64,000 nucleotides of DNA, taken from IMG/VR virus record IMGVR_UViG_3300036846_000488, positions 1 through 64,000 of that record, one strand, 5' to 3'. This stretch comes from a virus. Below are positions 1,393-62,241 of this stretch, in pieces (position 1 is the stretch's first letter; each line of letters opens with the position of its first letter). The position numbers and the translations under genes were made by a program. Below the pieces are notes generated by a model. It did not search any database. It was not told where the DNA came from and was given only the letters and a program-made list of their open reading frames with translations.

Positions 1393-1761
1393 TCACTGCC
1401 GCCTACGGTTCATCGCGATGCCTCCAGCGCCAGCAGTCAGACCGCCGGCTGCGATGCCACCGGTCAGCCCGGGACGACCCTGCAAGGCCTGGCCTGCCTT
1501 CTGGAGCTTCCCACCGGCCTTCACGTAGCCAGCACCGATCGTCCGAGCACCCTGGTTGAACCCTGCGCTGGGATGCGGGTTCGCCCGCACCGCACCGAAC
1601 ACCTTGTTGCCCTGGCTCCGTACTCCAGAGCCCAGGTGCTCCACGCCACGACCGATGGCACCCCCAGGCTTGGCCAGCATCCGCCCAGCCGCACCCGCGC
1701 CGGGCAGCTTGAAGGCCTTCTCGATGTCACCGTGGTCGATGCCGAATGCGCTCTCCATCAC
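1393..1761 (-). CDS. Gly/Ala-rich cationic putative internal head protein with SAFGIDHGD leader
   Basis: MMESAFGIDHGDIEK|A leader shared with 2303-2617 and 14235-15212; C-terminal GGIAAGGLTAGAGGIAMNRRRQ. Confidence 0.6.
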   Translation of the reverse strand: MMESAFGIDHGDIEKAFKLPGAGAAGRMLAKPGGAIGRGVEHLGSGVRSQGNKVFGAVRANPHPSAGFNQGARTIGAGYVKAGGKLQKAGQALQGRPGLTGGIAAGGLTAGAGGIAMNRRRQ

Positions 1762-2303
1762 TCCTCCAAGAGTCCCTTGCGTCCACGACCAGCAGCCTCC
1801 ATGGCCAGCACCCGATCGGTCTCCTCGGGGTACTTGGTCAGGTAGCCCTTCACCTCATCCACCGTGTGATCGGCGGGGTCGTACTGCGGCATGTCGCTAC
1901 CCTCCTCGATCGGCTCCTGCTCGGGCTCGACGACCTCGCCATCGTCAGGAGTGGGTGCCAGAGCGTCCTCACCGGGGCCCTCAGGCTCCGGAGTGAGCTC
2001 GGGGTTGGTCAGCACGTCCAGGTCGATCGCGGAGTCAGGCTCGGTGGGCCAGACCAGCTGCACCCGGTCCCGGTTCAGGTACTCCTCGGCCTCCTCGCGA
2101 GTCCGGATGTGAGTGTGCCAGTGCCTGGGCTTCAGGTGACCCTCTTCCAGCACCGGGATCACGAACCGGGCCCGGACCAGGGTCTCGATGTTCCGGGCCT
2201 CCTCCTGCGGGAACTCCTGACCCAGCACGTACTCCTCACCGGCGTAGATGAAGTTCTTGGCCGCCAGGAAACTGATCCCGTCGTTCTTCAGCAGCTGAAC
2301 CAT
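1758..2303 (-). CDS. hypothetical head-associated protein
   Basis: Acidic linker plus C-terminal TVDEVKGYL...VLAMEAAGRGRKGLL mini-domain commonly encoded after actinophage capsid genes. Confidence 0.55.
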   Translation of the reverse strand: MVQLLKNDGISFLAAKNFIYAGEEYVLGQEFPQEEARNIETLVRARFVIPVLEEGHLKPRHWHTHIRTREEAEEYLNRDRVQLVWPTEPDSAIDLDVLTNPELTPEPEGPGEDALAPTPDDGEVVEPEQEPIEEGSDMPQYDPADHTVDEVKGYLTKYPEETDRVLAMEAAGRGRKGLLEE

Positions 2304-2617
2304 CAGCTCTCCTCCGGCTTCTTCTTCTTCAGCTTGATCGCCTTGCTGCCCTTGTAGTAGCCCTTGTTCTGGGCCGCATTCGCGCCCACCGCTCCGCCCA
2401 CGATCGGGACTCCGACCGCGCTACCCGCGAGCGCCGGAGCGAACTCATGGCCGGCGGCCTGCCACTTGTGGCCCTTCTTGCCGGCGATCAGACCGTGCGT
2501 GCCCGGGAACAGACCTGCGGTGATGCCTCGTCCGACGCTCATGTTGGAGCCGGTGGTCCAGTGCTCCGACTTCTTGTAGATGTCCCCGTGCTCGACTCCG
2601 AAGGCTGACTCCATCAT
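2303..2617 (-). CDS. Gly/Ala-rich cationic putative internal head protein with SAFGVEHGD leader
   Basis: MMESAFGVEHGDIYK|K leader, SD AGGAG, basic tail KLKKKK. Confidence 0.6.
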   Translation of the reverse strand: MMESAFGVEHGDIYKKSEHWTTGSNMSVGRGITAGLFPGTHGLIAGKKGHKWQAAGHEFAPALAGSAVGVPIVGGAVGANAAQNKGYYKGSKAIKLKKKKPEES

Positions 2618-4121: not shown

Positions 4122-4946
4122 CTACCGGTTCTGCTGCGAACGCAGGTACTCGTCGTAGGCGTCCGGATTCTGGTCGAACACCGTATTGATGGCTGAGACA
4201 GCGTTGTAGTCCTCGGACTTCCCGAAGGCCTCGTGAGCGTGCGCCTCGACCTGGCTGTAGATGTCGGCGTTGTCGCCGCCACCCTGGTAGCCGGTCTCCT
4301 CGAAGATGATCTCGCCCGCCGTCTCCAGCGCCTTGGCGATCACCTTGCAGTCGTCGAAGCTCATCGTCTCGGCCATCCGGTAGAGCACCGGACCGAGCTC
4401 GTCGGCAGGGATCGGGAGGTTGTACTCCGCGGCCTTGGAGATGTACTCGCGGGTCAGCCGGAGGTCTCGCTCGGACTTCGCGATCCGGCTGTTCTCCTGC
4501 AGCGCGGTCTCCAGCTCCTCGACTCGACCGAGCGCCTTGGCGATCACCGAGTCGCGGTCCTTGTCGCTGAACGCCTTGCTGAGCTCCTCCATCACCGCAG
4601 CTGAGAAGCTGCCGGTCTGCGGAGCAGACTTCTCGAAGAAGGCCGACTTACCGACCCCAGCGAGCTCGGGCACGGGCTGGTCCTCCTCCACCATCACATC
4701 GCCGTCGTCCGCGCCATCGTCCTCGACGTACTCGTAGGCCTGGCCTGCGTCGTCGTACACGATGTCGCCGAACTCCAGCTGGTCCTCATCGAGGGGCTTA
4801 CCCTCCTGGTTGTAGAGCTTGGGCATCTCTTCCTCCTCGGGAGCCCGCTTCGCGATGACGAACCGTGAGTACTGGTTCGCGGCCTTGTCGACTGTGGAGA
4901 TCTCGTCGATCTCCATGTCCGTCAAGTTCTTGATCGGTCGTGGCAT
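4122..4946 (-). CDS. capsid scaffolding protein with N-terminal XkdF/prohead-protease strand
   Basis: Acidic, helical, upstream of decoration/MCP; begins MPRPIKNLTDMEIDEISTVDKAAN; 10 of 15 Lys lie in hydrophobic-x-K-[ASR]. Confidence 0.72.
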   Translation of the reverse strand: MPRPIKNLTDMEIDEISTVDKAANQYSRFVIAKRAPEEEEMPKLYNQEGKPLDEDQLEFGDIVYDDAGQAYEYVEDDGADDGDVMVEEDQPVPELAGVGKSAFFEKSAPQTGSFSAAVMEELSKAFSDKDRDSVIAKALGRVEELETALQENSRIAKSERDLRLTREYISKAAEYNLPIPADELGPVLYRMAETMSFDDCKVIAKALETAGEIIFEETGYQGGGDNADIYSQVEAHAHEAFGKSEDYNAVSAINTVFDQNPDAYDEYLRSQQNR

Positions 4947-4957
4947 CTCATCTACCT

Positions 4958-6337
4958 CTAGTTCTCAGTCTCACGGTGCTGTCCATTCGGGTTGTCGCTG
5001 TGATCGACTCCGAAGGCTGATGTGGTGTCGCGCTTCTCGTAGGACTGCCAGGAGTTCCTCCGGCCATGATGAGCCAGAGCAGCCCCGGCACCAGTCACCG
5101 CAGCCACCCCACCCAGACCAGCAGCGAGCTTCCCGCTCCGGGTTGCCTTGGCATGACGCACCGCCTGAGCCGCCTTCACGTTCGGCAGGTGCCGGGCCTG
5201 GATCTGACCCGCAGTCCGGTTCTTGCTCTCGTTCTTCAGCGCGTGGACTCCAGCCGCTACCGCACCTGTTCCAGTGCCCGCAGCCACGGACGCTCCACCG
5301 ACCTCGTACTTCTTCGCGCGCGCGTGCCGTTTCGCCTCGGGGTCGTAGTTCCGAGCCACCGGCTCCCAGGCCTTGGCGATCTCCTCCTCGATCTGCTCGT
5401 GGGTGATCGCGTGGCCCTCCTCACCGAAGTAGCCCATCTCCATGCCGAGGTCCGATGCTCCTTCAGACTTCTTCACCGGTACTGCCTGCTTCCGCCGGCG
5501 CGACTCCGCCGAGTAGATGCTCGCCTGGTTGAAGCCGCCCACGCCGCCGATGCCACCAGAGACGATCCCGGTGTTGATCGCGGCGTTCTTCATCCCCTCC
5601 GGAGTCGCGTTCCCCAGCTTCGGGACCTTCCGGATCGCCTTCAGGGTGCCGGTGCCCACCCTGCCCTTGCGCGCAGCCACCGCGGCCACGCCGGTGATCC
5701 CGAGCCCGGACAGACCCAGAGTGGAGGTGGTCCGGGCGATCTTGCCCTGGATCTTCTGGCGATGACGGAGCTCGGTGTCGCTCATCGAACGAGCCTTGCT
5801 GACCGGCTTCCGCGCCCTCAGCTTCGTCTGCTGGACGGCCAGCGTCTTCTTCTGCTCCTTCCGCGTCGCCAGTCCGGCGGTGGCAGTCAGTCCGGCTCCG
5901 CCTGCGATCCCAGCCATCCCCCAGCGACCCGGGTGGTGCGCCTTCTCCGCGGCCTTGGTACCGACATCGGTGATCAGATGCACCGACTCTCCCCGGGGGA
6001 TGAACCGCTTCTCCAGCTTCTCCTTGTTCTCAGCGATCTTTCGGTCTCGACGAGTCGTGCCGAGGTAGGCAGGAGAACCTGCTGCGGTGCCGATCACAGA
6101 TCCGGTGAGCACCGCGTTCAAGTTGGTGCCTCGACGGATGGAGCGGTCGTCCTTCATGTCCTGGTTCAGCTGGCCGAACCTGCGACCCTTCGGCTTCCCA
6201 TTCGACTTCAGACGGGTAGCTGGATCGCTGGTGAGGTTCCCGACCCGGGCCTGGGCCCGGGCCTGAGCCCTGCCCCGGACCGCGTGGAAGGCCCCACGCA
6301 CCTTGTCGGTCCTCTTCGGGAGCCTCAGCGTGGTCAT
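4958..6337 (-). CDS. cationic Gly/Ala-rich multi-module putative internal head polyprotein
   Basis: 459 aa, SD GGGAGG; repeated basic + small-residue hydrophobic segments separated by LEK|R, VSK|A, VKK|S, IAK|A, YEK|R; C-terminal SAFGVDHSD. Confidence 0.6.
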   Translation of the reverse strand: MTTLRLPKRTDKVRGAFHAVRGRAQARAQARVGNLTSDPATRLKSNGKPKGRRFGQLNQDMKDDRSIRRGTNLNAVLTGSVIGTAAGSPAYLGTTRRDRKIAENKEKLEKRFIPRGESVHLITDVGTKAAEKAHHPGRWGMAGIAGGAGLTATAGLATRKEQKKTLAVQQTKLRARKPVSKARSMSDTELRHRQKIQGKIARTTSTLGLSGLGITGVAAVAARKGRVGTGTLKAIRKVPKLGNATPEGMKNAAINTGIVSGGIGGVGGFNQASIYSAESRRRKQAVPVKKSEGASDLGMEMGYFGEEGHAITHEQIEEEIAKAWEPVARNYDPEAKRHARAKKYEVGGASVAAGTGTGAVAAGVHALKNESKNRTAGQIQARHLPNVKAAQAVRHAKATRSGKLAAGLGGVAAVTGAGAALAHHGRRNSWQSYEKRDTTSAFGVDHSDNPNGQHRETEN

Positions 6338-6390
6338 AAACGCCTCCCGTGGCCGTTGCAGAAAGACTTTCCGGCCCCTACGCTGAAAGA

Positions 6391-6714
6391 ATGGGATCCA
6401 GCAAGGAGTACATGCGCGAGTGGCGAGCGAAGAACCAGGACAAGATACGCGAGTACAACCGCAAGAGTCGGTACAACAGGTACGGCCCCTCCCGCCAGGC
6501 CGCCATCGACTACCTCGGTGGGCGGTGTCACGGCTGCGGCTTCGATGATGTCCGATGCCTCGATGTCGACCACGTTTTCGGCGGTGGGAGCAAGGAGCGC
6601 GCTCGGCGCGACCGGATTGCCTTCTACAAAGATGTCGTCGCCGGGGACCGCCCAGATGTCCAGCTTCTCTGTCTCAACTGCCATCGGATCAAGACCTCTC
6701 TGGAGCGTCAGTAA
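6391..6714 (+). CDS. HNH endonuclease, free-standing, antisense to the structural operon
   Basis: CHGCG...LDVDHV.GGG...QLLCLNCHRIKT HNH/Zn motif. Confidence 0.85.
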   Translation: MGSSKEYMREWRAKNQDKIREYNRKSRYNRYGPSRQAAIDYLGGRCHGCGFDDVRCLDVDHVFGGGSKERARRDRIAFYKDVVAGDRPDVQLLCLNCHRIKTSLERQ

Positions 6715-7834
6715 CAGGACTCCGACGGCCCGAGCCATGGATGCTGAACCCGGTCCGCTCGCCGGACTTCACCTTCGCCCAGACATCGGGATCCTGGACC
6801 TTGAATCCGACCCACCAACCGGTGGGCACCGAGTCTGGCAGACCCATCGCGTCTCGCTTCTCCGGAGTCACGATGAAGCTCTCGATCATCTCGCTCTTCT
6901 GGACCGGGCTCCAGTCGTCACGCAGGTGCATGTCCCCGCCCTTGCGGGACTTCATCACGTACTCGTAGCCGGCCTTCTCCATCTCGTCGACGGAGATGTA
7001 GTCGCCCTGCAGATCTACCACCGGCTCCCCGTTCACCTCCACCACCGAGGCCCAGCCGAAGATCTGCTGCTTGTCGGCGTCGGCCTTGGAGATCTCGGCG
7101 TTCCAGATCACGTCTACTTCGGTGTCGTCGGCCTTGCTGATCTGAGGTACCGGTTGGACGAACTTCCCCCGTACCTTCCCGTTCGGCTTGGCGGTGCCGG
7201 CTCGCACCCGCTCGTTGTACGCCGCCCGCATCTTCTCCTTGTCGAACCGGAGCGCCTTCTCGACCTGGTTGGTGGTGATCACCTTGTCCGGGAGCTTCTT
7301 CAGCGCCCCAGCGCCCTTCTTGGTGTACTCCAGCCCCTTCTTCCGGACCTTCGGGTTGGAGATCACAGCCATGGTCAGCTGTCCCTTGGTCCGGGGGATG
7401 CCGGCGTTGTTCCGCATGTCGGTGGAGTCCGCCTTGACCACCGGAGTCTTCTTCTTGGTGTCCCCGTGCAGGATCTTGGTGGCCATCAGCTCACCACCCA
7501 GCCCCGCCACCTCCAGTGGCACCAGTCCGGCGGCCAGCTTCTTGGACTTCACCGCGGTCTTCAGCGCCCTGAACTTGGCCCTGGGTGCATGGAACTCGTG
7601 GGCTGCCTGCTGCGCCTCCCGAGCCTTGCGGTACCCGCCATGCGTCTCAGAGGCAGCCAGCCCCAGACCAGCAGCACCAGCGGTGGCTCCGACCGCGCTC
7701 AGCCCGGCGGTGAACGCTCGCTTGCGCTTGTCGTGGGTGGCCAGGTCGGACTGGGCGGGGTTCATCTTCTCGATCAGCTCGTCGCCGCCACCAGCGAGGA
7801 TCAGCTCGGCTACCTCCCGCATCACATCGCTCAT
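6689..7834 (-). CDS. XkdF-like (S78-type) prohead serine protease with long N-terminal cationic extension
   Basis: C-terminal core 6689-7084: IFGWASV...DLQGD...GDMH...ESF...GWWVGFKV...WAKVKSGERTGFSIHG. Confidence 0.82.
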   Translation of the reverse strand: MSDVMREVAELILAGGGDELIEKMNPAQSDLATHDKRKRAFTAGLSAVGATAGAAGLGLAASETHGGYRKAREAQQAAHEFHAPRAKFRALKTAVKSKKLAAGLVPLEVAGLGGELMATKILHGDTKKKTPVVKADSTDMRNNAGIPRTKGQLTMAVISNPKVRKKGLEYTKKGAGALKKLPDKVITTNQVEKALRFDKEKMRAAYNERVRAGTAKPNGKVRGKFVQPVPQISKADDTEVDVIWNAEISKADADKQQIFGWASVVEVNGEPVVDLQGDYISVDEMEKAGYEYVMKSRKGGDMHLRDDWSPVQKSEMIESFIVTPEKRDAMGLPDSVPTGWWVGFKVQDPDVWAKVKSGERTGFSIHGSGRRSPVTDAPERS

Positions 7835-7856: not shown

Positions 7857-10532
7857 CTACTCGTACGGGCGCATCGGGACGACCGGGATCTCCCGGCCCT
7901 CGTCCTCGATGTAGTCGGTGGTCGGTCCCGTCTCCACGTACTGGCCGGACAGTTTGAACATGTGCGGCCCTGCCGTCCGAACCATGTTCTCGTCCCGATG
8001 CCCGTGCTGGACCTCCAGCACCCGGTAGTTGAACTCGTCGGGATGCACCCCGGCCTGCTCCAGCACGTCCTGGTCGTTGACGTAGGAGAAGTCCTCGGAG
8101 ACTCGATGCCCCATGCTGTCGGTCCAGATCACGTCCTCGTAGTTGTCCAGATCGATGTCGTTCCAGGTCTCACTCTGCTGCGTGCTGGTGGCGAACCGGT
8201 GCAGCGCGGCCTCGAAGGACTGTGAGCTAACCACGGCGTACATCGGCTCACCATCCTCATCGACGCTCTGGACCCGAACTGAGCCGTTGTGATGAGATCC
8301 CAACACCGCGTCCAGGATCTCGTCCTCCTTCGCCCGGCGGGCCTCGGTGACCGCCATCCCGACCTGATCCCGGGAGTCGACGAACAGCTTCTGATCCAGG
8401 TACATGTCGGTGTCGTAATCACTCAGGTGCACCACCGCGTAGTAGGAGCGACCATCCGGATGCAGCTGGACCGGCCCGTACGGAGCCAGGTCCGGCTTGC
8501 CCTCGGGCTGCACCGCGGGCTCCACGTTGATCGCCGTGGAAGGTCCCGTCAGGTTGATCTCCGAGGGCGCTCCGGTCAGATTGATCTGCTGCTCTGGTAC
8601 CAGGCTGATCGTGGGCTGAGCGATCGAGATCTCCGCCGGCGCGATGTTGATCTCCTCCTGAGCGATACTGATCTGACGCTTGGGCCGAGGTCGCGGAGCG
8701 ATGTTGATCAGACCGCCGGTGATGTTGATCTCCTTCGGCTCTGGGGTCTCGGACTCAACCATCGGCTCCTCGGGCTCCTCCATCGCCGCTAGCTGCCGCC
8801 AGATATCGGCCCGCGGGCGCTCCTTGGTGGTCACTCGGGAGAAGCGGCCTGGGTTCTCCGGATCGCCCCCGCGCGGGTGCTCCTTGGCATCCCAGTCGGC
8901 CTTGGAGATCCGGTGCGAGGTCTGCTTCAGATGCACGACGGTGAGCCCGTTGTCCTCCCCCACCTGCGTGATCTGGAACTCTCCCCGGGTGATCCACTCC
9001 GCCTGCCGCTCGGAGACCAGCGGAGAAATGTTCAGCGCGTTGGCCTTCGGCTCCAGCATCATCACCAGTGGATGCGCGGAGGTGTCGGTCCGGCCCTCAC
9101 GCTTCGCGTGCGCGCGAGCGATCATCGGGCCCCACTTCCGGGCGAAGTGCTCGGAGAACGACCGATCCTCGGTGAACGAGGAGATCGGCAGGGTGAAGGT
9201 GCTGCCCTGCTTCAGCTCGTCCAGATGCTCGGTGGTCACCGTCATCCCCCGGTACAGCGCTGGAGCGTTCGCCGGCGCGGAATCCACAGCCTTGATCAGT
9301 GCCTTCAGCGACTTCTCGGTCTGGCTCAGCTTCATCTTGCCGGCGTAGTACTCGTTGTCCGGGTCCTCCATCTTCCGCGCCCGCTGGACGTGTGCGGACT
9401 TCCGGGACCAGGCCGCAGCGCCGTGCGCCAGCCGAGCCATCTCCTTGTCCCGGTGCTTCAGTGGGGTGATCAGGTAGCGCGGCTCCTTGACGTAGCCGAC
9501 AGCCTGAGCACTTCGGTGAACGATGGTTCCCTGGATCACCTTGGCTGAGGGGCTCTCCAGGGCGTTCACCTTGTGCCCAAGCTGCCGAGTTCGGGACTGG
9601 CCCCCGGCCCAGCGACCGTCGCCCCCACGCGGCTGATGCGGATCGAACCGCTTCTCCAGCTTGAACCGGTTCTCGATCAGTCGAACCACACACCGACAGT
9701 TCGGGTGCACGCCCGGTGACCAGAAGTCACCTTCCTTGGTCTTGAACTGCTCGTTGACCAGCACCTTCTGCCCGTGCAGCGGGCCGCACACCGGACAGAC
9801 CCGCTCGTCGTGAGCGGTGATCCAGATCTTCTGAGCGCGCTCGGTGAGCCGGCCCTTGTCCTGCATCCACATCCAAGCGAACTGCTTGGCCTGCTCCTCG
9901 ATGTTGTGCTCTTCCTGCTCGCTCAGCTTCTTGACCCGACCGGTGAAGGACTTGTCGATGTAGTCCCTGGACCTGGCCTTCACGTCGAACGACGCCGGAG
10001 ACTCCACCGAGGTGGTCAGCTGCTGGTTGTGTGCGTACCCGCGCATCTGTCGAGGGGTCAGCCCGTAGGCGTCCAGCACCTTGTCCGCTGCCGCCTTGGC
10101 CGGGATCCTCCGGTTCACCATCGTGTTGAAGCCCTCGGCCAGCGCATCCCGAGAGGAGGCGTGGAAGTAGTCCCCGACCTTCTCCGCGTGCTTCTCGGCC
10201 AGGTCGTAGATCACGCTCATCGGCACGTCACCGGCTCCGGCCCGCGTCCACGCGCGCACGTAGGCGTCCGCGATCACCGGAGCTGAGACCTTCCGGTACT
10301 GCGGCAGGAGGATCTGCCAGGTCATGTCTGCCAGCCGCAGCAGCTGACCGTAGGTGGGCTCTACCAACCCCCGCGCCTCGGCCTTCATCTGCGACACCAT
10401 CCGGGCCCGGACCATCGCCAGCGCGGCCTCCAGGGCCTCGGCTGGTGAGGTCAGGAAAGCCCCCGGGGCGGGTAGATCCCGGGGTCGGAGATCGGTGGGG
10501 TTGAAGTGCAGCTCAACCGAGGGAGAGGTCAC
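7857..10532 (-). CDS. MuF-like minor head protein fused to an ADP-ribosyltransferase domain and an unknown C-terminal domain
   Basis: KIWIT..DERVCPVC..LHG...HPNCRC MuF signature; LYRGM...ISSFT...QAEW R-S-E ART motifs at about 8901-9650. Confidence 0.8.
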   Translation of the reverse strand: MTSPSVELHFNPTDLRPRDLPAPGAFLTSPAEALEAALAMVRARMVSQMKAEARGLVEPTYGQLLRLADMTWQILLPQYRKVSAPVIADAYVRAWTRAGAGDVPMSVIYDLAEKHAEKVGDYFHASSRDALAEGFNTMVNRRIPAKAAADKVLDAYGLTPRQMRGYAHNQQLTTSVESPASFDVKARSRDYIDKSFTGRVKKLSEQEEHNIEEQAKQFAWMWMQDKGRLTERAQKIWITAHDERVCPVCGPLHGQKVLVNEQFKTKEGDFWSPGVHPNCRCVVRLIENRFKLEKRFDPHQPRGGDGRWAGGQSRTRQLGHKVNALESPSAKVIQGTIVHRSAQAVGYVKEPRYLITPLKHRDKEMARLAHGAAAWSRKSAHVQRARKMEDPDNEYYAGKMKLSQTEKSLKALIKAVDSAPANAPALYRGMTVTTEHLDELKQGSTFTLPISSFTEDRSFSEHFARKWGPMIARAHAKREGRTDTSAHPLVMMLEPKANALNISPLVSERQAEWITRGEFQITQVGEDNGLTVVHLKQTSHRISKADWDAKEHPRGGDPENPGRFSRVTTKERPRADIWRQLAAMEEPEEPMVESETPEPKEINITGGLINIAPRPRPKRQISIAQEEINIAPAEISIAQPTISLVPEQQINLTGAPSEINLTGPSTAINVEPAVQPEGKPDLAPYGPVQLHPDGRSYYAVVHLSDYDTDMYLDQKLFVDSRDQVGMAVTEARRAKEDEILDAVLGSHHNGSVRVQSVDEDGEPMYAVVSSQSFEAALHRFATSTQQSETWNDIDLDNYEDVIWTDSMGHRVSEDFSYVNDQDVLEQAGVHPDEFNYRVLEVQHGHRDENMVRTAGPHMFKLSGQYVETGPTTDYIEDEGREIPVVPMRPYE

Positions 10533-13500
10533 GCGGTGTTCTTCCGACGCAAGTAGCCCTCGTCATCCTGCTCGAACAACTCCGATCGGGTCTCAGCCAG
10601 ACCACGCTCACCAAGGTCTAGCTTGTTGTGCCGGTCCGGAAGCGTCTCGTACGCATGCTGGGTTTTCGCCAGCATCTCGCCAATCTCCACCTCACTCGGA
10701 GTCTCCCCGCTCTCGATCAGAGTCTGCAGCTCCTCGGCAGCAACCAGCGCCTTGTCACCGGGAGTGACATCGAGGAGCCCGTGACCATACCGCCAACGAC
10801 GCAGCGCCTCGACTCGCTGTCGCACCACTGCCTGCTTCTCGACATCGCTCATCGCCTGGCCCACCGAGTTAGGAGCGCTCGGACGCACCGCGACGCTCCG
10901 ATCCCATGAGCCCTGGTAATGTGCCTTGAGCGCGCGCATCCGGTGCACGTCGGTGATCCGTTCGAGCAGGTCTTCCTTCTTCGCACCCACGATCATGTCG
11001 ATGGCCCGGTTGTCGTAGTGGTCCTTGAAGATCCGCTGAGCCACCTGCCGGCGCATGTCGATGTTGTTCGGGTCCTGGACTGCCGGGTTCCGGTCGACCT
11101 CCTGGTAGACCTGGCGCAACGCACTGAGCTCGTTCTTCATCGCCTCATCGCCCCGCCTCGCCACCTCGGACAGAGGTAGTCCGGTGGTCACCGAACGGGT
11201 CCGGTTGTCGATCGCCTGGATCTGGGTGTCACGCTGAGCGTCGGAGTCGGTGGTCTGGTAGCCCTCGCCCTGGAACGTCATCGGGTCCGTGGTCCAGTAC
11301 AGCGCCATCCGAGGATCGAAGGCCACCGCGTTCAGGTCTCCGCGTGAGGCCGCATAGGCCTGAAGCGCGGACCTCTGACTGGGTGAGGACAGGTGACTCC
11401 GCAGCCTCTCGACCAGCTCGTTGAACCGAGCGTTGTGCTCCGGGTCCTGGATGGCCGTGGCGAAGGCCCCTGGATCTACCTTCGAGTCTGCCAACCCGAT
11501 CACGTCCTCGAACGCGAGCCGAGATGCCGGGTCGAGAGGCAGCTGCTGGATCTCGGTGAACAGATTCACCGCGCTGTCCTGGTACTGAGCCTGACGAGCG
11601 GCCTGGTCGACAGGTGTTGGCGCTCCTGCCGCTGTGGTCTCTGGAGTCGCAGCGGCCTCCTCCGTCGCCTCCGTCTGCGGGTTCGCAGCCCGCTGGTGGG
11701 GCACCCGATCGCCCTGACCAGGACCGATCCGACCACGCTGGTAGTCGGCCTGGGAGGCGGAGAACTTCTCGCTCCCGACCGAGCCACCGGCAACGGCGTT
11801 CGCCTCGGTGCCGAACAGACCCGCGCGCACCGCCGTGGGCCGGTTCCGACCGGGCTCGACGTAGCCCTTGTCCTTCTCTCCGGAGAAGGTCTCGTCCTCC
11901 TTGGTGATCACCGGGTGGGACTTGATGTAGTACGGGAACTGCTCGGCCAGCGCGTCCTGCGCGGCCTCGTAGCCCTTGGCATTCAGCTTGTAGTTCCCGG
12001 CCTTGCCGGCCATCACCATGTTCCGGGCAGCCCGGGACCACTCCACCTCATCCCGAGAGGGGTGATCCTTCATCCCCTGCTCGGCCACCAGACGCATGAT
12101 CTTCTCGTCCTCGGGAGTGAAGTCCGGGTCCTCCTGGTACTCCATGATCCGGGACTGGACCTTGGCCTTGATCGCCGGCCCGCGCTCGCCCGGGTACTCC
12201 TGCGCGACCTCGCGCTGGATCGCCTGCCGGACCGGAGCCGGCACGTCACCGGTGCTGACCTTGTTCGACTGCACCGCATCCAGGAGCTGCTCGTAGCGTC
12301 GGGTCATCCGCAGCGCCTTGTCGTTGTACCGACGCCCGCCCCGGAAGTCCTGCTCGAACTCGATCGAGAAGGTGCCCGAGCGCGAGGTCACCGTGACCCG
12401 ACGCGCACCGGAGATCAGCCCGGTGTAGATGTCCTCGGAGGTCAGCCCGCCCACCGAGCGGGTCCGGACGTACTCCCCACCCTTCAGCGCCTTCAGGTTC
12501 TTCAGGTTGAACGGCAGGTAGTGGTCGTCGCCGTAGCCGACCGCCTGAGTGACGATCTGCCCGTCCTTGTTCAGGATGATTCCCTCCGAGGGCGGCAGGT
12601 TCCCGGACTCGGACTGCAGGTTGTAGAGCTCCCCCTTGGGGAAGTTGGGGGAGCGCCTCAGCTGCTGGACGATCACCTTCCGGCCCTGAGCCAGTTCCGA
12701 ACGAGTCGGCGGGCGATCCATCGCCTTGGCCCGAGCAGCACCCATCTGGGAGATCGAAGGAGCGACCGGTCCGCCACCCTTGGGGTGCACCCGAGTACCC
12801 GACCGACGCATCCCGAGCTCGTCAGCCCGGGGCTTCTCACCGGCCCGAGGGACGTAGAGCTCGGTCTGGTCCGGCACCCCACCGGTGCTCTTGGCGCTCG
12901 CGATCGCGCGCCCGTAGAGCGCCACGATGTGCGCGTCCGGCTTCTTCTCGGTGCCCCGGTACCGATAGGCCGTCTTCCGGGCGGTAGGGCCGATCACGGC
13001 CTCGGCCTCGGCACCATGGCTGCCCACGACCTCCGCGAGCTTCGCCGCAGCCGCCACCTTCGTTCCCGGTGCGATCGCACCGACGTAGGAGCCGGTAGTA
13101 CCCACCCGGTTGTACAGACGCTCGTTGGAGGCCTTCATGTCCGGGGGAGCAGCGCGCCACTGAGCACCGAACGTGGGCATCTGGTCCAGAGCGGTGTTGG
13201 CCATCTCCATCCGCTGGCCGGTCCGGTCACCGGGCTGAGCACCCAGCGCGTGCGCCAGGCTGAACGCAGCCCCGCCGGCGGTCAGTGTGGTGGGCGTGGC
13301 GTCGGCCTCCAGCAGCGTGTAGTGCGGGTTCAGCAGCAGATGGTTGGCGTCGCCGGCCCCGCCCATGTGCCGGACCCGGAACTCGTTCCCCTGCTGGTCC
13401 GCGAACCGCAGGTGCACCTGACGGTCTCCGTCCGCGCCAGTGGACTGGCTGGCCACGTTCAAGAAGCCGGCCAGCTGTCGGTACTCGTCCTGGTACTGGG

Positions 13501-14233
13501 CCTTCTGCTCCTTGGTCAGCCGGGCGTACTGCATCCGCTGGGCGGGGTCGTGGGGCACCAGGCCCATCCCGTTCGCGACCTTGTTCGAGAACGGGGCCTT
13601 CTGGTTGTGCTTGATCTTGGACCGGAACTGACCGGAGTGCGGGTCGCGACGGAAGTCGGACTCCTTGAACTCGTAGAGCCCGGCGATGTAGGGGTTGACC
13701 ACCGCCTTCTCGATCTCCTCCAGGGCAGCCGCAGCCTCCTTCGCGCCCTCGTGGTGGCCCTTCGCGATGGTGGCCATCATCGCCTTCTTGACCAGCTCCA
13801 CCCGCTGGTACAGCACCTCGTCCAGGTGCCGCTGCAGAGTGCGCAGGTTCTTCTCCACGTCGGTCTCGAAGATCTCGCCGGCCACCATGGTGGTGAACAT
13901 CTCGGCGGAGTCGTCGTCCATCTTCATCACCAGGTCGAAGGTCTTCCTGGCGGCCTCGTGGTTGAACTCGGGGTCATCGGAGTGCACATGTTCCTCGTAG
14001 AGGTACTTCTTCACCCGGCCCTTCTTCTTCCGCCGGTGCTCGCGCTCGATGTCCTGGACCCGTGGGAACTGGTTGGCCAGGCCACCGGCCACGGTGCCGG
14101 CGATGACCGGCTTCAGCCAGCCCTCACCCCTGGACTTGGCGATCTTCCCGCCGGTCTCCTTGTCCCACTTCGCCGCGATCTGGGGGTGCTTGGCGTGCAT
14201 GAACTTCCGCTGAGCAACGCTCTTGTAGGGCAT
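10529..14233 (-). CDS. large (1234 aa) putative internal/ejected head protein with degenerate JAB-like domain
   Basis: Start reassigned to MPYKSVAQRKF (14233); lies between portal and MuF; internal EGIILNKDG...GGEYVRTRS..GLTSEDI. Confidence 0.6.
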   Translation of the reverse strand: MPYKSVAQRKFMHAKHPQIAAKWDKETGGKIAKSRGEGWLKPVIAGTVAGGLANQFPRVQDIEREHRRKKKGRVKKYLYEEHVHSDDPEFNHEAARKTFDLVMKMDDDSAEMFTTMVAGEIFETDVEKNLRTLQRHLDEVLYQRVELVKKAMMATIAKGHHEGAKEAAAALEEIEKAVVNPYIAGLYEFKESDFRRDPHSGQFRSKIKHNQKAPFSNKVANGMGLVPHDPAQRMQYARLTKEQKAQYQDEYRQLAGFLNVASQSTGADGDRQVHLRFADQQGNEFRVRHMGGAGDANHLLLNPHYTLLEADATPTTLTAGGAAFSLAHALGAQPGDRTGQRMEMANTALDQMPTFGAQWRAAPPDMKASNERLYNRVGTTGSYVGAIAPGTKVAAAAKLAEVVGSHGAEAEAVIGPTARKTAYRYRGTEKKPDAHIVALYGRAIASAKSTGGVPDQTELYVPRAGEKPRADELGMRRSGTRVHPKGGGPVAPSISQMGAARAKAMDRPPTRSELAQGRKVIVQQLRRSPNFPKGELYNLQSESGNLPPSEGIILNKDGQIVTQAVGYGDDHYLPFNLKNLKALKGGEYVRTRSVGGLTSEDIYTGLISGARRVTVTSRSGTFSIEFEQDFRGGRRYNDKALRMTRRYEQLLDAVQSNKVSTGDVPAPVRQAIQREVAQEYPGERGPAIKAKVQSRIMEYQEDPDFTPEDEKIMRLVAEQGMKDHPSRDEVEWSRAARNMVMAGKAGNYKLNAKGYEAAQDALAEQFPYYIKSHPVITKEDETFSGEKDKGYVEPGRNRPTAVRAGLFGTEANAVAGGSVGSEKFSASQADYQRGRIGPGQGDRVPHQRAANPQTEATEEAAATPETTAAGAPTPVDQAARQAQYQDSAVNLFTEIQQLPLDPASRLAFEDVIGLADSKVDPGAFATAIQDPEHNARFNELVERLRSHLSSPSQRSALQAYAASRGDLNAVAFDPRMALYWTTDPMTFQGEGYQTTDSDAQRDTQIQAIDNRTRSVTTGLPLSEVARRGDEAMKNELSALRQVYQEVDRNPAVQDPNNIDMRRQVAQRIFKDHYDNRAIDMIVGAKKEDLLERITDVHRMRALKAHYQGSWDRSVAVRPSAPNSVGQAMSDVEKQAVVRQRVEALRRWRYGHGLLDVTPGDKALVAAEELQTLIESGETPSEVEIGEMLAKTQHAYETLPDRHNKLDLGERGLAETRSELFEQDDEGYLRRKNTA

Positions 14234-14234
14234 C

Positions 14235-15212
14235 TCAGGATCCCTTCTTCTTGCGACCGGCGAGCAGGCCACCAGCGGCTACCGTACCGACTACCGCCGA
14301 TGGGCCGCGGAACCTGCGCACCACCTTCGCGGTGTCCCCGTACACCTCGGCGAAGTGAGTCGCCTGCGCGGCATCGCCACGGAGCCTGCCGGCCTTCGCC
14401 GCGGTCTCGTGCGAGACACCGTGCAGGTACTTCTTCGGGTCTCGTGCCATCGCCTCATCGGAGTGCACCGGATACCTGGACTTGGGGAACGGCTGGCCCG
14501 GGTGCCTCTTGACCTGCCGCGCGTACTGCTTGTCGGTGACCGTGGGGTCCTTGCGTCCTGCCATGCTCGGGATCAGTCGCCCAGCCTCATCGATGGCGTG
14601 GCTGGCCCGGTTGTTCCACTTCTTCTCCTGACGCCCCAGCACCGCGCCAGCACCGGTGCTGACCGCCGCGCCGGTGGCACCAGCACCCGCGAGGGTGGCG
14701 TTGTACGCCTGGCCTCGACGACGGTCCTTGCGCACCTCGCTCTTGGCCCGGTGCACGCCGTACGCCGTGGCCGCAGAGCCACCGATCAGCGCTGCGCCGG
14801 CGACCTTCTTGGCCCCCGCCATGTGCCGCAGCACCTGCAGCTCCGGCTTGATCTTGCCCTGGTTCCGAGCGCGGGTGAACGTCTGCGAGGGAGTCGGGTT
14901 CTTGATCTTGGACTTCTTATCCTCCACCCGCTGGAACCACTTCACGCCGCCCTCATGGACAGCACTGCGGTAGCCGAGGACACCGCCACCGCCCAGCTTC
15001 GCTCCGGCCCTGGCCTTCCCAGCCAGCCCTGGCTCCTTCAGCCGAGCCACGTCGTGGTAGCTGCCCTTGACCCCGGGGATGCCACCGGCCACCAGTCCGG
15101 TCCCTGCCGTGACCGCGCCAGCACCGGCGATCGCCGAGCCCTGAGCATGGCGCTTGTCGCTGTTCTTCTTGGAGACCACATCGCCATGGTCGATCCCGAA
15201 CCCGCTGATCAT
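14235..15212 (-). CDS. Gly/Ala-rich cationic putative internal head protein with SGFGIDHGD leader
   Basis: MISGFGIDHGDVVSK|K leader; several AGA/GxxxG segments each followed by basic residues. Confidence 0.6.
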   Translation of the reverse strand: MISGFGIDHGDVVSKKNSDKRHAQGSAIAGAGAVTAGTGLVAGGIPGVKGSYHDVARLKEPGLAGKARAGAKLGGGGVLGYRSAVHEGGVKWFQRVEDKKSKIKNPTPSQTFTRARNQGKIKPELQVLRHMAGAKKVAGAALIGGSAATAYGVHRAKSEVRKDRRRGQAYNATLAGAGATGAAVSTGAGAVLGRQEKKWNNRASHAIDEAGRLIPSMAGRKDPTVTDKQYARQVKRHPGQPFPKSRYPVHSDEAMARDPKKYLHGVSHETAAKAGRLRGDAAQATHFAEVYGDTAKVVRRFRGPSAVVGTVAAGGLLAGRKKKGS

Positions 15213-17077
15213 CGCTTCCCCTTCGGTGGGGGCTTCTTCGCGGTCTTCTTCGATGCTCCTACGGACCTGGCCGGCGGCTTCGCGAACCGCTGCTTGTCCT
15301 TCAGCTGCTGGGCGGTCAGCTTGGCGTTCGTGGCAGCGGAGCGGTCCTTCAGCCGCATCTGCTCCTTGGTCCGCTTGTGATCTCGGTTGGCCATCGTGTC
15401 CTGCAGGCGCATCTTCTCCTTCTCGCGCCCGTGCTGGGACTGAGCCACCTTCTCCTGCTGCTGCATCATCTGCAGCTGGCGACCATGCTCCTTGTCGGCG
15501 TTCGGGTCCTCAGGCGGCGGCTGGTTGGCCAGCTGCTGCTGCTGAGCCTGCATCTGCAGGTCCTGCTCCTGGGTGGCCGGGTGCGGAGTCTGGGCGTGCA
15601 TCTCGGCCTGCTCCGGGGTCATCCCCTGCGCCGTCATGTCGGCCTTCTGCTTCAGCCCGAGCAGCTCCATCTGGCCCTGCCCGTACTCCATGGCCTGCTG
15701 CTGCTCCAGCATCACCTTCTTGTAGTCCACGTCCTCGTCGGTCATCTCCGGGAGGCGAGCGATCTCGCGGATGTACTTCTCCAGCTCCGGGTCCGGGAAC
15801 CACTGCATGCCGGCACCAGCGGTCGCCGAGATGAAGGCAGCCAGCTGGTCCAGGGCCGGCGGATCCACATTGGTGGGCTCGAACCTGGGCAGCTCGTCCA
15901 GCTTCCAGCCGTTCACCGCGAACAGCCGGGGCACCGCGTATCGGTTCAGGGTGTCCGCGATGGACTTGGTGATCGCGTTCAGAGCAGCCCGGAAGATGCC
16001 GGTCTTGTCGGTGTGCAGGGAGTAGGAGCCGGTGTCCTGGTGTCCGACCAGGATGAAGTCGGCCAGCACGCTCATCAGGATCCGCTGCTCGTAGCGCTGG
16101 ATGATGCTGTTGGTGTCGAACTGCCGGGTGCCACCGGAACTCATCAACTCGAAGTCGAACAGCGGCTGCTTGGTGTCCGGGTCGTACTGGGTGGGCAGCA
16201 CCAGGCCCTCGTTCTCATCCCGCCTGACCCCGCGGACCATCTTCCGGAAGGCGTCCACGGTCTTCGCCTGCGGGGTGCCCTTGGCCGCAGTCAGGTAATC
16301 GGCAGGTACCCGACCCACCGGCATACCCGCCAGGTCACGCTCGACACCGATCGCCTCGAACTCCTCCAGCCGCTTCTTGAAGTACCAGGACCGGTAGGAG
16401 CTGCGGAGCAGGCTCAGACCCTCGGGGTTGCCCTTGGCGATGGAGGTTCGGAACAGGATGCTCTTCTCGATCGGGATCACCGTGGTGGCGTACCGGGGAG
16501 GTGCCATCTGCACCATCGCCCGGATCCCGCCGGTCTCGTCGAAGGACCAGCGCAGCATCGTCTCCTGCGCGCGGATCGGCATCTTCCGCCAGCCGATCTT
16601 GCCGTCCGTGTACTTCGAGCGCTTCTTGGGATTCTTCTCCCAGGGACCGACCCGCTTCTTGTAGACGATCTCGTGCCAGGACCAGCCGAAGGTGATCATC
16701 GAGAGGATCTCGCCGATCAGGTCGTCCCAGCTGTGGGACATGTCCTCCATGCAGGATTCGAGGAACTCCTGGGCCTCATCACCGTCCGTGCCTGAGTCTG
16801 CCGGCAGCACCTTCCACTCCACCTCGCGGAGCAGCTTGTCGATGCTGAACAGCAGCGCCCCGACCATCGAGTCGTTGGACGCCATCTCCCGGTAGACCCG
16901 GACCGCCTTGCGGCCACGCAGCGCCGGCAGGAACTCCTCGTCGATGTAGCCGGAGACCCGCTTGAGTCCGGTGACACCGAGCTCCTCCATCGGACCCGAC
17001 CGCTGCGGGACCTCATCGCCGGCGTTGTCCTCGTCCCAGGTGGAGATGTCACCCTGAGGGAGCCGCACGTCTGCCAT
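15209..17077 (-). CDS. portal protein (Mu gp29/DUF935-like) with Gln-rich and basic C-terminal extension
   Basis: Follows TerL; FGWSWHEIVY, NPEGLSLLR..Y..W..K, IGVERDLAGMP motifs. Confidence 0.85.
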   Translation of the reverse strand: MADVRLPQGDISTWDEDNAGDEVPQRSGPMEELGVTGLKRVSGYIDEEFLPALRGRKAVRVYREMASNDSMVGALLFSIDKLLREVEWKVLPADSGTDGDEAQEFLESCMEDMSHSWDDLIGEILSMITFGWSWHEIVYKKRVGPWEKNPKKRSKYTDGKIGWRKMPIRAQETMLRWSFDETGGIRAMVQMAPPRYATTVIPIEKSILFRTSIAKGNPEGLSLLRSSYRSWYFKKRLEEFEAIGVERDLAGMPVGRVPADYLTAAKGTPQAKTVDAFRKMVRGVRRDENEGLVLPTQYDPDTKQPLFDFELMSSGGTRQFDTNSIIQRYEQRILMSVLADFILVGHQDTGSYSLHTDKTGIFRAALNAITKSIADTLNRYAVPRLFAVNGWKLDELPRFEPTNVDPPALDQLAAFISATAGAGMQWFPDPELEKYIREIARLPEMTDEDVDYKKVMLEQQQAMEYGQGQMELLGLKQKADMTAQGMTPEQAEMHAQTPHPATQEQDLQMQAQQQQLANQPPPEDPNADKEHGRQLQMMQQQEKVAQSQHGREKEKMRLQDTMANRDHKRTKEQMRLKDRSAATNAKLTAQQLKDKQRFAKPPARSVGASKKTAKKPPPKGKR

Positions 17078-17103: not shown

Positions 17104-18606
17104 TCACACCATAAGGTCTAGGTCCTCCGAGACCTGGAGAGACTTGTTCTCGACGCTGCCCACCGTCCAGTTCCCCGGCTTCCGCTTCGCGTCGTTGTTC
17201 TGGCGCATCTCCTCCTCGATCCAGGTCGGACCGTGGTCACCGACCACCACCAGCGGCTGGGCTGGAATCGCCCGCTTGGAGACCAGCCGGTAGCACAGCG
17301 CCATCGAGCAGATCTCGTCCGGGAGGTGGAACTCCTTCCCGCGCGCATAGAGCATGTCCACCGAGGCGTACAGGTGGTTCTTGTAGAAGACCGGCACCCG
17401 CGGGGCCTTCCAGCGGTCGTTCTCGATCGAGCTCACGTACTCACTCAGCATGTTGTCCCGCTGGGCCCCGGTCATCAGGAAGCCCCGAGCCCGCCGGTCG
17501 ATGTAGTCCGCGACCACCGCGCCCAGCCCGGTGGCGTCGTGGATGCCCTCGGCGTTGTACTCCTTCATCAGCTTGTTGAACTCCCCGATCATCACCGGGT
17601 AGGGCAGCCGGCGCATCCGAGACCAGTGCACCACCCGGCACGGGAACCGGGTCACGTCAGCGACCGTGATCACCGTCCAGTCCTGCTCCTTGGCCCAGTC
17701 CGCACCGATCACGTACTCCCGGTCCTGCAGCGAGTTCTCGAACCGGTAGACCTGACGTTCCTTGCTCACGCTCTCTCGGATGCTCTCCTCGGGCAGATCG
17801 AACATCCGCTCCACCGCTGCCGAGTCGATGGCACGAGAGCCGATGCTGGGCTCACCCAGGTCGTACTCCACCCGCCACATCTCGGCGGGGATCTCCCGGC
17901 GCTTCTGGTCGATGGTCTCCTGGTCCAACCAGCCGTCGATCTCGTTACTGGTGTCCTTGTAGCACCAGGTGTAGATCGGCAGGTTCTCCTCCTGGAACCG
18001 CAGGTACTCGTGCGCGAAGGTCTTGTCCGGGTACTGCCAGGTCGAGCTCATCGCAGTCATCGGGCGCACGATGTCGCCCTTCCAGTTCTTCTGGGGCATC
18101 GGCTGGCCCTTGGCCGCGTCGAAGATGGCCTGGTCCATCTCGTCGATCTCATCCAGCAGCAGGGTCGGCGGGTGCGGGCCACGGACCGTCTTCTGGGAGG
18201 CCGTGAGCGGCATGATCGTGGCCCGGTTGGTGAGCTTGATCCGGGTCGCCGACTCCTCCTTGACCAGATAGGAGGGAGCGTTGCTGTGCTCCCAGGCGTC
18301 CCGGATGGTGTTGTGAATGTTGATCGACTGGTTCAGCGAGCCACCGACGATGTTCACATCCGAGCCGGTGATCGCGGCCTTGGTCAGGCCCAGGATGGAG
18401 AGCAGCCGGGACTTCCCGGACAGACCACGAGAGCCGTGGATCAGGATCTGTGGCTCGCGGTTGAAGTAGGCGGTGGCGAAGGCGTCGAACGGAGCGTCGT
18501 GGTCTGAGCAGACCTTGTACCGGGGGATCGTCAAGCCCCAGAGGGCCTTGACTACCTCGTACAGCTCGTCATCCGAACGCGGCGCGCGACCCAGGATGAT
18601 GCTCAC
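17104..18606 (-). CDS. terL: terminase large subunit
   Basis: Walker A GSRGLSGKS, Walker B LLLDEID, RNase H-like IGADWA..DWT and C-terminal PDEICS. Confidence 0.9.
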   Translation of the reverse strand: MSIILGRAPRSDDELYEVVKALWGLTIPRYKVCSDHDAPFDAFATAYFNREPQILIHGSRGLSGKSRLLSILGLTKAAITGSDVNIVGGSLNQSINIHNTIRDAWEHSNAPSYLVKEESATRIKLTNRATIMPLTASQKTVRGPHPPTLLLDEIDEMDQAIFDAAKGQPMPQKNWKGDIVRPMTAMSSTWQYPDKTFAHEYLRFQEENLPIYTWCYKDTSNEIDGWLDQETIDQKRREIPAEMWRVEYDLGEPSIGSRAIDSAAVERMFDLPEESIRESVSKERQVYRFENSLQDREYVIGADWAKEQDWTVITVADVTRFPCRVVHWSRMRRLPYPVMIGEFNKLMKEYNAEGIHDATGLGAVVADYIDRRARGFLMTGAQRDNMLSEYVSSIENDRWKAPRVPVFYKNHLYASVDMLYARGKEFHLPDEICSMALCYRLVSKRAIPAQPLVVVGDHGPTWIEEEMRQNNDAKRKPGNWTVGSVENKSLQVSEDLDLMV

Positions 18607-45593: not shown

Positions 45594-46217
45594 CTACTGA
45601 CCCACCCCTACACAGACCGAGACCACCAGGTTCCGATCGACTGGCACACGCTCATGGAGACTGACCGTGGTCAGTACGAACCCCGCTGGACACAGTGGTC
45701 CAGGAGGGCCCGTAGGGCCTACCTCCCCAGGAACACCAGGGATACCCGGTGGACCTTGCTCACCACGTTGTCCTTGGACTCCGGGTACACCGGGTTCACC
45801 CTTGGCTCCTTGCTCACCTCTCAGGCCAGTAGCACCTGGTAGTCCTCTGGGGCCTACTGCACCTGGTGAACCCGGTGTACCCGAGGTCCCTCTTAGACCG
45901 GGTGTGCCTACTCCGTCCGTACCATCGGCACCATTCAGTCCAGGAAGACCTTGGGGACCGACAGGTCCTACTGGACCTCTGGCTCCTGTGGGTCCCACAG
46001 GTCCTTGGGGTCCAAGAGGCCCTGGGACGGTAGTAGCAGGGCCTGATGTAGTAGGAGCGTGGGTGGGACTCGGTAGAGGACTCGGTGGAGGACTCTTCGA
46101 GTCGGCATGGACGAAGTGCGTCAGCTCAGTGGGTGTGGCCAGAGCTATGCCCACTCCCACCACGCTCAAGGCCAGAGCAGTTCCGTAGCCCGCTGCTTCG
46201 ATCAGGATCGTCTTCAC
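45594..46217 (-). CDS. membrane-anchored collagen-like protein
   Basis: N-terminal hydrophobic helix, Pro/Thr linker, 36 Gly-X-Y triplets with one interruption, C-terminal Cys pair. Confidence 0.75.
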   Translation of the reverse strand: MKTILIEAAGYGTALALSVVGVGIALATPTELTHFVHADSKSPPPSPLPSPTHAPTTSGPATTVPGPLGPQGPVGPTGARGPVGPVGPQGLPGLNGADGTDGVGTPGLRGTSGTPGSPGAVGPRGLPGATGLRGEQGAKGEPGVPGVQGQRGEQGPPGIPGVPGEVGPTGPPGPLCPAGFVLTTVSLHERVPVDRNLVVSVCVGVGQ

Positions 46218-52048: not shown

Positions 52049-52075
52049 GTGTTTCACCACAGAAAAGGAACCATC

Positions 52076-52573: not shown

Positions 52574-52599
52574 ACCATCCAGACCCTGAAGGGGGAGCA

Positions 52600-62200: not shown

Positions 62201-62241
62201 AGGAGCGTGCCTTAGTAAGACCTGGGCACATGCAGGATCCA

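Follow-up and report, generated by a model that had tools for sequence, protein, structure and literature searches.

What role does a strongly basic, glycine- and alanine-rich protein play when its gene lies among the head-assembly genes of an uncultured phage? The question is raised by a 459-residue open reading frame (ORF) in a 64,000-nucleotide stretch of DNA (the window), which comprises the first 64 kb of the 81,256-bp viral record IMGVR_UViG_3300036846_000488. This record is rated complete by CheckV, and the window has a G+C content of ~64%. The original prediction, made from the sequence alone, had described the product as a polyprotein of cationic Gly/Ala-zipper peptides carried in the capsid and resembling membrane-active peptides. 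Our analysis indicates that the gene most likely belongs to the head-assembly programme of an uncultured, ~80-kb, long-tailed phage lineage. By analogy with the internal proteins of phage T4, we put at about even the chance that the protein is a precursor of internal head peptides, that is, both housed in the head and processed.

Composition and module borders

The 459-residue ORF is a real gene, with a ribosome-binding site and a family of homologues. Its product has a pI of 10.95 and a net charge of +44 (81 Lys and Arg versus 37 Asp and Glu), and is rich in Ala (14.6%), Gly (12.6%), Arg (9.4%) and Lys (8.3%). Six runs of 20-27 residues are free of Asp, Glu, Lys and Arg (residues 70-95, 139-158, 203-222, 251-277, 346-367 and 404-425). 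These runs consist of 56-75% Gly, Ala, Ser or Thr and 23-30% Val, Leu, Ile, Met, Phe or Trp, and each is directly bordered by clusters of Arg or Lys. The small-residue stretches with basic flanks described previously are thus present, and are not expected from composition, as only 2 of 2000 shuffled versions of the protein contained six or more runs that were 14 residues or longer. Small-xxx-small pairs are also in excess (61 observed against 47.6 +/- 4.8 expected, a count reached in 8 of 2000 shuffles); strict GxxxG is not enriched (10 versus 7.1 expected).

The same architecture had been proposed to recur in other proteins of the window, giving well over a dozen segments. By one strict rule, four runs are found in the 325-residue ORF, one in the 122-residue ORF, one in the N-terminus of the prohead protease and a marginal one of 14 residues at the start of the 1234-residue protein. 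The recurrence is therefore real in these proteins but not in the 104-residue ORF, which has no run by this rule because its stretches are broken by Pro and Lys, and the total including the six runs of the 459-residue protein is about 13. Runs of similar composition also occur in the tape measure protein (six Gly/Ala-rich uncharged runs), the cement protein, Gly-rich tail-fibre-like proteins and other ORFs; none of these similar runs elsewhere in the genome is bordered on both sides by Arg/Lys clusters.

Predicted cuts at K110, K181, K290, K322 and K435 define four basic pieces of 110, 71, 109 and 113 residues (net +10 to +17, 7.5-12 kDa, pI 10.8-11.9; modules N1, N2, A and B in Table 1) and two acidic pieces, namely a 32-residue spacer and a 24-residue tail carrying a short tag. 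This agrees with the four modules and one acidic spacer proposed earlier, to which the acidic tail is added. The modules are not detectably homologous to one another (hhalign probability below 4% for every pair). Hence, of the suggested diversified cocktail of peptides, a shared style of composition stands, but the modules do not form a repeat family.

Relatives were collected by a word-index search (64 homologues) and by an exhaustive profile search (468 clusters at 50% identity). Shorter homologues gave few matches in the former, and the split forms described below came from the latter. The family is uncharacterised and metagenome-only, with many members on contigs of 78-83 kb, and a search of 185,579 species genomes found no prophage copies. 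None of the homologues has been characterised or named or had its structure determined, and a sequence comparison with solved structures gave no match. The protein has no Pfam or PHROG match, and ESM Atlas returned matches only to unnamed viral clusters, at 0.81 or below. Among 45 viral loci fetched for comparison, the head module is syntenic, and all related loci have the gene between those of the protease and scaffold. The capsid protein is 60-97% identical across loci (87-97% in closer loci, where the scaffold is 73-85% identical); relatives of the 459-residue protein are only 34-57% identical over the core and vary in length from 250 to 830 residues.

The conserved core spans residues 185-459, and many relatives start at MSDAE (M185), a few residues past the start codon. 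Near-invariant positions include M185, S186, E189, R193, K195, Q197, G208, L209, the S260-A272 motif, E278 and K290 in module A; G305, E306, G308, K322, W324, P326, D332, E334, R337 and R340 in the spacer and module B; and W430, Y433, K435 and tag residues S440, A441, F442 and G443 near the C-terminus. Module A thus carries a conserved MSDAE..RRR.K.Q helix, and a near-invariant SGGIGGVGGFN.A motif lies in run 251-277. The two Gly/Ala runs of the core are uncharged in nearly all homologues. Lysines 290, 322 and 435 are kept in about 90-98% of ~60 homologues, and K435 is part of a YAK(R) sequence before the C-terminal tag in 98% of homologues. The last eight residues, GQHRETEN (residues 452-459, nucleotides 4961-4984), are retained near letter-for-letter in many homologues that are otherwise only ~50% identical, and may be a second short docking motif behind the tag.

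Naturally fused, split, deleted and swapped forms of the protein, which were found when module number and order were compared among related phages, mark most of the predicted borders. At K181, the N-terminal extension is present, absent or swapped: at least five types of extension precede the same core, always joined via (V)SK and a few residues. The type seen in the 459-residue protein is common to cluster P0002 and locus L004. In P0038, P0048 and P0057, the extension is a full homologue of the 325-residue protein (E 1e-80). In locus L015, a 325-residue homologue and the core are fused in one 645-residue gene; in L004, L010 and L017, the homologue has a gene of its own, located between those of the protease and core. 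The 325-residue gene itself lies between the portal and 1247-residue genes in the window, and upstream of the portal in L021. The extension of the 459-residue protein was also considered as a paralogue of the 325-residue protein and rejected. A first profile comparison gave 95% probability, which was an artefact of mixed alignment rows; clean groups gave 0.5%, the same as a reversed control, and pairwise BLAST matched the tag only.

The split and spacer-less forms, which were read from protein clusters alone, bear on K290 and K322. Module A occurs alone in P0147 (121 residues) and P0171 (155 residues), where the tag and a stop codon come a few residues after PVKK, and in P0196 (115 residues), which has IKK and the tag at its end. 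The spacer and module B occur without module A in P0110, P0068, P0134, P0154 and P0166, which start at or just before M-D/E-M-G-Y/H-F/Y-G-E-E-G (MDMGYFGEEG in one stand-alone form), and in P0107 and P0073, which start two residues further in (MGYYGEEG and MGFFGEEG). The start methionine of these genes is conserved inside the fused forms. As all seven starts cluster within a few residues, they are unlikely to be random truncations at the ends of contigs. Six clusters (P0095, P0131, P0139, P0136, P0086 and P0108) cleanly lack the spacer, with VKK, VTK, VAK or VRK directly joined to AW or NW; in other members, an invariably acidic spacer of 15-32 residues is flanked by hydrophobic-x-Lys sites at both ends. 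Some clusters can thus do without the spacer, but in those that have it, few stretches are better conserved (GMEMGYYGEEG...IEKAW). It may serve a separate function, for example by shielding the basic modules or as a docking site.

At K435, further modules follow beyond the site in P0021, P0024, P0046 and P0063. The K110 border has little support, as no fused, split, deleted or swapped form breaks there. From these sequence comparisons, module borders at K181, K290, K322 and K435 appear well supported, so that the proposed polyprotein layout is retained at these four sites but not at K110. The natural forms also offer a ready map of the pieces.

The SAFGV[D/E]H tag

The heptapeptide SAFGV[D/E]H, located by regular expression in six frames, occurs exactly four times in the window, each time in a basic, Gly/Ala-rich protein of the head region; the remaining 17 kb of the genome contains none. 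The 45 loci hold 123 distinct copies, of which 87 are N-terminal, 32 C-terminal and four internal. All 87 N-terminal tags start 3-5 residues past the start codon and are followed by a hydrophobic-x-Lys sequence within seven residues. The Lys sites after tags are most often VSK (32), ISK (25) or IEK (13), and the next residue is Ala in 35 cases and Gly in 16. The 32 C-terminal tags lie within 20 residues of the stop codon, most of them preceded by VKK, YAKR, VSK or a similar Lys site. The four internal copies are all followed by VSK, and are preceded by VSK in two cases and YAKR in the other two. With Lys sites beside the copies in this manner, the tag is usually set off from the body of the protein at either end.

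All 85 N-tagged ORFs are basic (11-23% Lys and Arg) and Gly/Ala-rich (18-48%). No cargo domain was matched when those tagged ORFs that are less rich in Gly were scanned against Pfam and PHROG. Third-codon positions vary in the DNA that encodes the tag, and therefore selection acts on the peptide rather than on the DNA. In a rough gene call on 12 phage sequences, 10 encode ~800-1400 residues of such proteins in 2-6 genes, with a combined net charge of +80 to +140 and 7-12 runs; the two lower totals reflect genes missed by the call.

Predicted structure and membrane character

The full-length AlphaFold2 (AF2) model, built with 64 sequences, is all-helical, with a mean predicted local distance difference test score (pLDDT) of 62.5 and a predicted template-modelling score (pTM) of 0.35. 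The best region comprises residues 160-290 (pLDDT 80-92), and the N-terminal extension is mostly below 50. Long helices are predicted at residues 187-222, 246-285 and 385-429. A model of module A alone (P0147) also consists of two long helices (mean pLDDT 64.7, pTM 0.30). The protein is thus predicted as long helices without a compact fold, rather than as a single globular domain. The helix limits in the model suggest a hairpin in which the two Gly/Ala runs would face each other beside the basic loop and the charged ends would pair at the open end. Structural comparison of residues 184-290 with VIA-align retrieved generic antiparallel helical hairpins, including those of SMC coiled coils, hantavirus N, ESCRT-III, IpaB, colicin Ia and AhlB, with Z scores of 8-9.7 that are below the noise level for helical models and reflect shape only. 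Foldseek returned nothing at E <= 0.001.

The likeness to membrane-active peptides holds for composition but not for membrane character. The runs are not amphipathic, with hydrophobic moments of 0.01-0.12 and the charges located in the flanks rather than on one face. They are also only marginally hydrophobic, with mean Kyte-Doolittle (KD) values of 0.9-1.66 and Hessa sums of +2.8 to +8.1 kcal/mol (a simple sum over the best 19-residue window, not the full predictor); none of the six runs comes near or below the 0 kcal/mol at which autonomous transmembrane insertion would be expected. True membrane segments in small plus-strand ORFs of the same genome have values of -3.4 to +0.4, and the tape measure protein has +0.9. 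The 459-residue, 325-residue, protease and 122-residue proteins rank slightly below the true membrane segments (+2.8 to +4.4). Five of the seven stretches between or beside the runs have a net positive charge (+5 to +14), and the other two are close to neutral (-1); as the basic stretches break the positive-inside rule, a stable multi-pass topology is contradicted.

The spacing of Gly, Ala and Ser about four residues apart (SGGIGGVGGF) in predicted helices with basic flanks resembles glycine-zipper domains and Gly-rich class II bacteriocins, although the context here is a head-assembly operon. This resemblance does not extend to a match with the models of these families. The glycine-zipper Pfam models Gly-zipper_Omp, Gly-zipper_YMGG, Gly-zipper_OmpA and Rick_17kDa_Anti have no hmmscan match at E <= 10, the only hit being a chance one to LCE. 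The sequence contains neither a double-glycine leader nor a Bacteriocin_IIc-type Pfam match of the kind expected for a class II bacteriocin or microcin. The comparison with phage ejection proteins that had been drawn earlier is likewise without a matching model.

Proposed role and genome setting

We infer the following course, from prohead targeting and cleavage through virion presence and ejection to action on DNA or membranes. The precursor would be drawn into the prohead, possibly by the SAFGV[D/E]H tag and perhaps aided by charge attraction to the acidic 274-residue scaffold-like protein encoded directly downstream, a possible electrostatic partner. The XkdF-type prohead protease would then cut after the Lys of hydrophobic-x-Lys at K181, K290, K322, K435 and perhaps K110, releasing four basic peptides and two small acidic ones (the spacer and the tag tail). 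The basic peptides would stay associated with the DNA after packaging and accompany it out of the head at infection, like the T4 internal proteins. Their uncharged Gly/Ala helices would pack tightly as thin helical hairpins and may self-associate; insertion into the host membrane could occur only if they oligomerise or if the membrane potential assists. The charge and number of the peptides suit neutralisation of DNA charge, and a thin helical hairpin is a shape that could readily pass the portal and tail.

The closest parallel is phage T4, whose basic internal proteins of about 8, 10 and 20 kDa are present at ~300 copies each and carry a 10-residue targeting propeptide (capsid targeting sequence, CTS) that is removed by gp21; they are poorly conserved among relatives that retain CTS-like leaders, and the ADP-ribosyltransferase Alt is packaged with them (PMC9026906). 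Here too, small basic proteins are encoded among the head genes (7.5-12 kDa predicted, compared to ~8-20 kDa). Otherwise unrelated proteins share a short terminal peptide that ends at a putative prohead-protease site (85 N-tagged ORFs and 32 C-terminal copies across the 45 loci), and the cargo is hypervariable. A possible counterpart of Alt is a weak match of the MuF-like 891-residue protein, at residues 348-467, to PHROG 832 (RNA polymerase ADP-ribosylase, E 0.002). The two systems differ in that there is no sequence homology to the T4 internal proteins and there are no gp21-type sites; the putative site follows Lys rather than L/I-x-E, and the tag may be N-terminal, C-terminal or internal. 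Multi-module precursors of Gly/Ala-zipper helices with an acidic spacer, an XkdF-type protease and an 81-kb genome encoding a long tail and a 1981-residue tape measure protein also set this lineage apart.

Other known systems are more distant. The ejection proteins of podoviruses, helical and soluble in the capsid, show that such proteins can refold into membranes; some of them have putative membrane-spanning regions, which become inserted once the proteins are ejected (PMC8954989). Like gp14, gp15 and gp16 of T7 and gp7, gp16 and gp20 of P22, the 459-residue protein is predicted to be helical and internal; however, it has no PHROG or Pfam match to them, their size is large and they assemble into an ordered core stack, and the present runs are far less hydrophobic than predicted membrane helices, too weakly so for unaided insertion, and belong to a phage with a tape measure protein. 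The protein does not take the place of a phage scaffolding protein, which is held by the acidic 274-residue protein (-34, versus +44). Adenovirus pVII and pX/mu are very basic, DNA-associated precursors that are trimmed inside the capsid by the viral maturation protease; they belong to an unrelated virus and protease, and lack both Gly/Ala uncharged helices and a shared tag. The precursors of apidaecin and magainin are eukaryotic, secreted proteins in which homologous cationic peptides are repeated between anionic spacers and basic cleavage sites, whereas the modules described here are not mutually homologous and give no sign of secretion or antimicrobial action. Thus, tag-directed, protease-trimmed internal head proteins are already known as a kind. 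What is new is the tag with its Lys grammar and position independence, together with a cargo of Gly/Ala zippers made as multi-module precursors that contain acidic spacers.

Several observations weigh against a processed precursor. Hydrophobic-x-Lys is not enriched in the 459-residue protein (8 sites versus 7.0 +/- 2.2 by shuffle), and the motif is loose. Conserved lysines and clean module borders could delimit folding or binding units in place of cut sites. The packing of the hairpin is confident in the full-length model but not in that of the module alone (pLDDT ~57-77). The ejection conduit envisaged in the original prediction is not obviously needed, since the tape measure protein is the usual channel-former. 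Finally, no cultured relative was found in 50,697 phage records by blastn and tblastn with the protein and tblastn with the tag leader.

One alternative is an uncleaved minor head protein, in which the intact basic chain lines the inside of the shell or binds the portal and the DNA, and the Lys sites and tag act as binding motifs. The unenriched Lys motif fits such a protein, a single gene encodes module A, the spacer and module B together in most members, and the high conservation of the spacer and following region (G302, G305, E306, G308, K322, W324 and P326) suits a binding surface. We nevertheless consider it unlikely, as six clusters cleanly lack the spacer, others have the core divided between two genes with breaks at these points, and the Lys sites that usually set off the tag at either end give a layout typical of removable pieces. 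Slightly less probable is an assembly-only core protein, which would build or size the prohead together with the acidic scaffold and then be degraded by the protease and expelled, and so be absent from mature virions. The gene adjoins the scaffold and the protease region, the charges of the two proteins are opposite (+44 and -34), and T4 IPIII mutants have assembly defects (PMC9026906), but fast divergence and a variable architecture beside a highly conserved scaffold and capsid protein would be unusual in a structural assembly factor and are more like those of a cargo exposed to the host.

A membrane protein of the infected cell (holin-like, for superinfection exclusion, or an assembly anchor), with the runs as transmembrane helices, is improbable. 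Its six uncharged runs of 20-27 residues have bilayer-spanning length, and the best window (KD 1.66, Hessa +2.8) ranks just under the genome's true membrane segments. All six insertion energies are positive, however, no stable topology fits the positive-inside rule, the same type of run is found on the prohead protease, and a separate cluster of classical membrane ORFs exists at 52-54 kb. We give least credence to a cargo of the tail or neck lumen, whereby the tagged proteins would fill the connector or tail tube rather than the head and exit before the DNA. Several tagged ORFs do lie among head-tail connector genes downstream of the capsid gene, and thin helical hairpins would fit a tube; the largest tagged proteins, though, are encoded between the portal, protease and scaffold, and protease-type sites imply that the proteins are reached by an enzyme active in the prohead interior.

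A more far-reaching form of the precursor scheme appears rather doubtful in its entirety. The tag and the hydrophobic-x-Lys sites, read by the XkdF-type protease, would constitute a position-independent code for capsid loading, through which combinatorial, fast-evolving, basic Gly/Ala-zipper hairpins are packed; acidic pro-spacers would mask them until maturation, and the ejected hairpins would be pulled into the energised host membrane, where they would oligomerise via their glycine faces and either aid DNA entry or disable the envelope.

If the protein is indeed a precursor of internal head peptides, a soil phage lineage of 468 clusters at 50% identity would possess a system like that of the T4 CTS but unrelated to it in sequence, representing a second, independent example of tag-directed head-cargo loading, here in phages that have a long tail and a tape measure protein. 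The cargo would form a new class of basic, marginally hydrophobic Gly/Ala hairpins derived from acidic-spacer precursors, and a seven-residue tag that works at either protein end would be a handle for packing foreign proteins into capsids. The family also bears on the role of small internal head proteins in charge neutralisation, DNA organisation, entry and host takeover.

The head module of the window (Table 1) continues 3' of the scaffold with a cement/decoration protein and a major capsid protein of PHROG 1005. The N-terminal 240 residues of the prohead protease contain its single Gly/Ala run and two ISKAD sites directly before the catalytic domain. The 1981-residue tape measure protein is encoded in the remaining 17 kb (8604-14549, minus strand, in L049; 72604-78549 in the genome), and the phage is therefore long-tailed, with a very long tail implied. 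Pfam scans of the other genes identified no host; the closest cultured portal and capsid proteins are those of Arthrobacter phages, with ~45% identity.

Table 1. Coordinates of the 459-residue protein, its predicted pieces and neighbouring features in the window
Feature	Position	Strand	Remarks
459-aa modular basic Gly/Ala-rich protein (P0001)	4958..6337	minus	64 close homologues, 468 representative clusters
Module N1, residues 1-110	6008..6337	minus	net +17, run 70-95; part of variable N-extension; LEK110 border weakly supported
Module N2, residues 111-181	5795..6007	minus	net +10, run 139-158; PVSK181 end just precedes conserved core
Module A, residues 182-290	5468..5794	minus	net +16, runs 203-222 and 251-277; ends PVKK290
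Acidic spacer, residues 291-322	5372..5467	minus	net -8, pI 4.1; IAK322 end, then AW
Module B, residues 323-435	5033..5371	minus	net +12, runs 346-367 and 404-425; ends YEK435
Acidic C-terminal tail, residues 436-459	4961..5032	minus	SAFGVDH tag (nt 5000-5020); ends GQHRETEN
Ribosome-binding site GGGAGG	6343..6348	minus	5 nt upstream of ATG at 6337
Large terminase	17104-18606	minus	head module, first in order
Mu-type portal	15209-17077	minus	head module, after large terminase
325-aa tagged basic Gly/Ala-rich protein	14235..15212	minus	net +35, 4 runs; homologue fused to core elsewhere
1247-aa protein	10529-14272	minus	between portal and MuF
MuF-like 891-aa protein	7857-10532	minus	head module, before prohead protease
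Prohead protease	6689..7834	minus	XkdF/S78_2 catalytic domain at residues 247-370
HNH endonuclease gene	6349-6714	plus	PHROG 2255, E 5e-12; between protease and 459-aa gene
Scaffold-like 274-aa protein	4122..4946	minus	strongly acidic, net -34; directly downstream of 459-aa ORF
104-aa protein	2303..2617	minus	N-terminal tag, then IYK
122-aa protein	1393..1761	minus	N-terminal tag, then IEK; one Gly/Ala run

A 134-residue ORF (6334-6738, minus strand) was considered as a gene of the operon and rejected; it is antisense to the HNH endonuclease gene and probably no gene. In related loci, Gly/Ala-rich ORFs occupy the position of this endonuclease gene. The 1247-residue protein, which matches no Pfam or PHROG family, is present in all related loci with 36-48% identity. 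The alignment of its relatives begins only at residue 14 (MPYKSVAQRKF...), which suggests that the real start codon lies later. A KLEKRF.P motif follows the MuF domain of the 891-residue protein and is also found at residues 107-113 of the 459-residue protein. ORFs with classical membrane segments, most of them small (-3.4 to +0.4 kcal/mol), lie at 52049-53625 (plus), 46214-46471 (minus), 57884-58378 (plus) and 62230-63414 (plus), and those at 52-54 kb could represent a lysis or holin region. A tRNA-Ser (GCT) is predicted at 31013-31107 on the plus strand, within the region covered by a minus-strand ORF (30858-31823).

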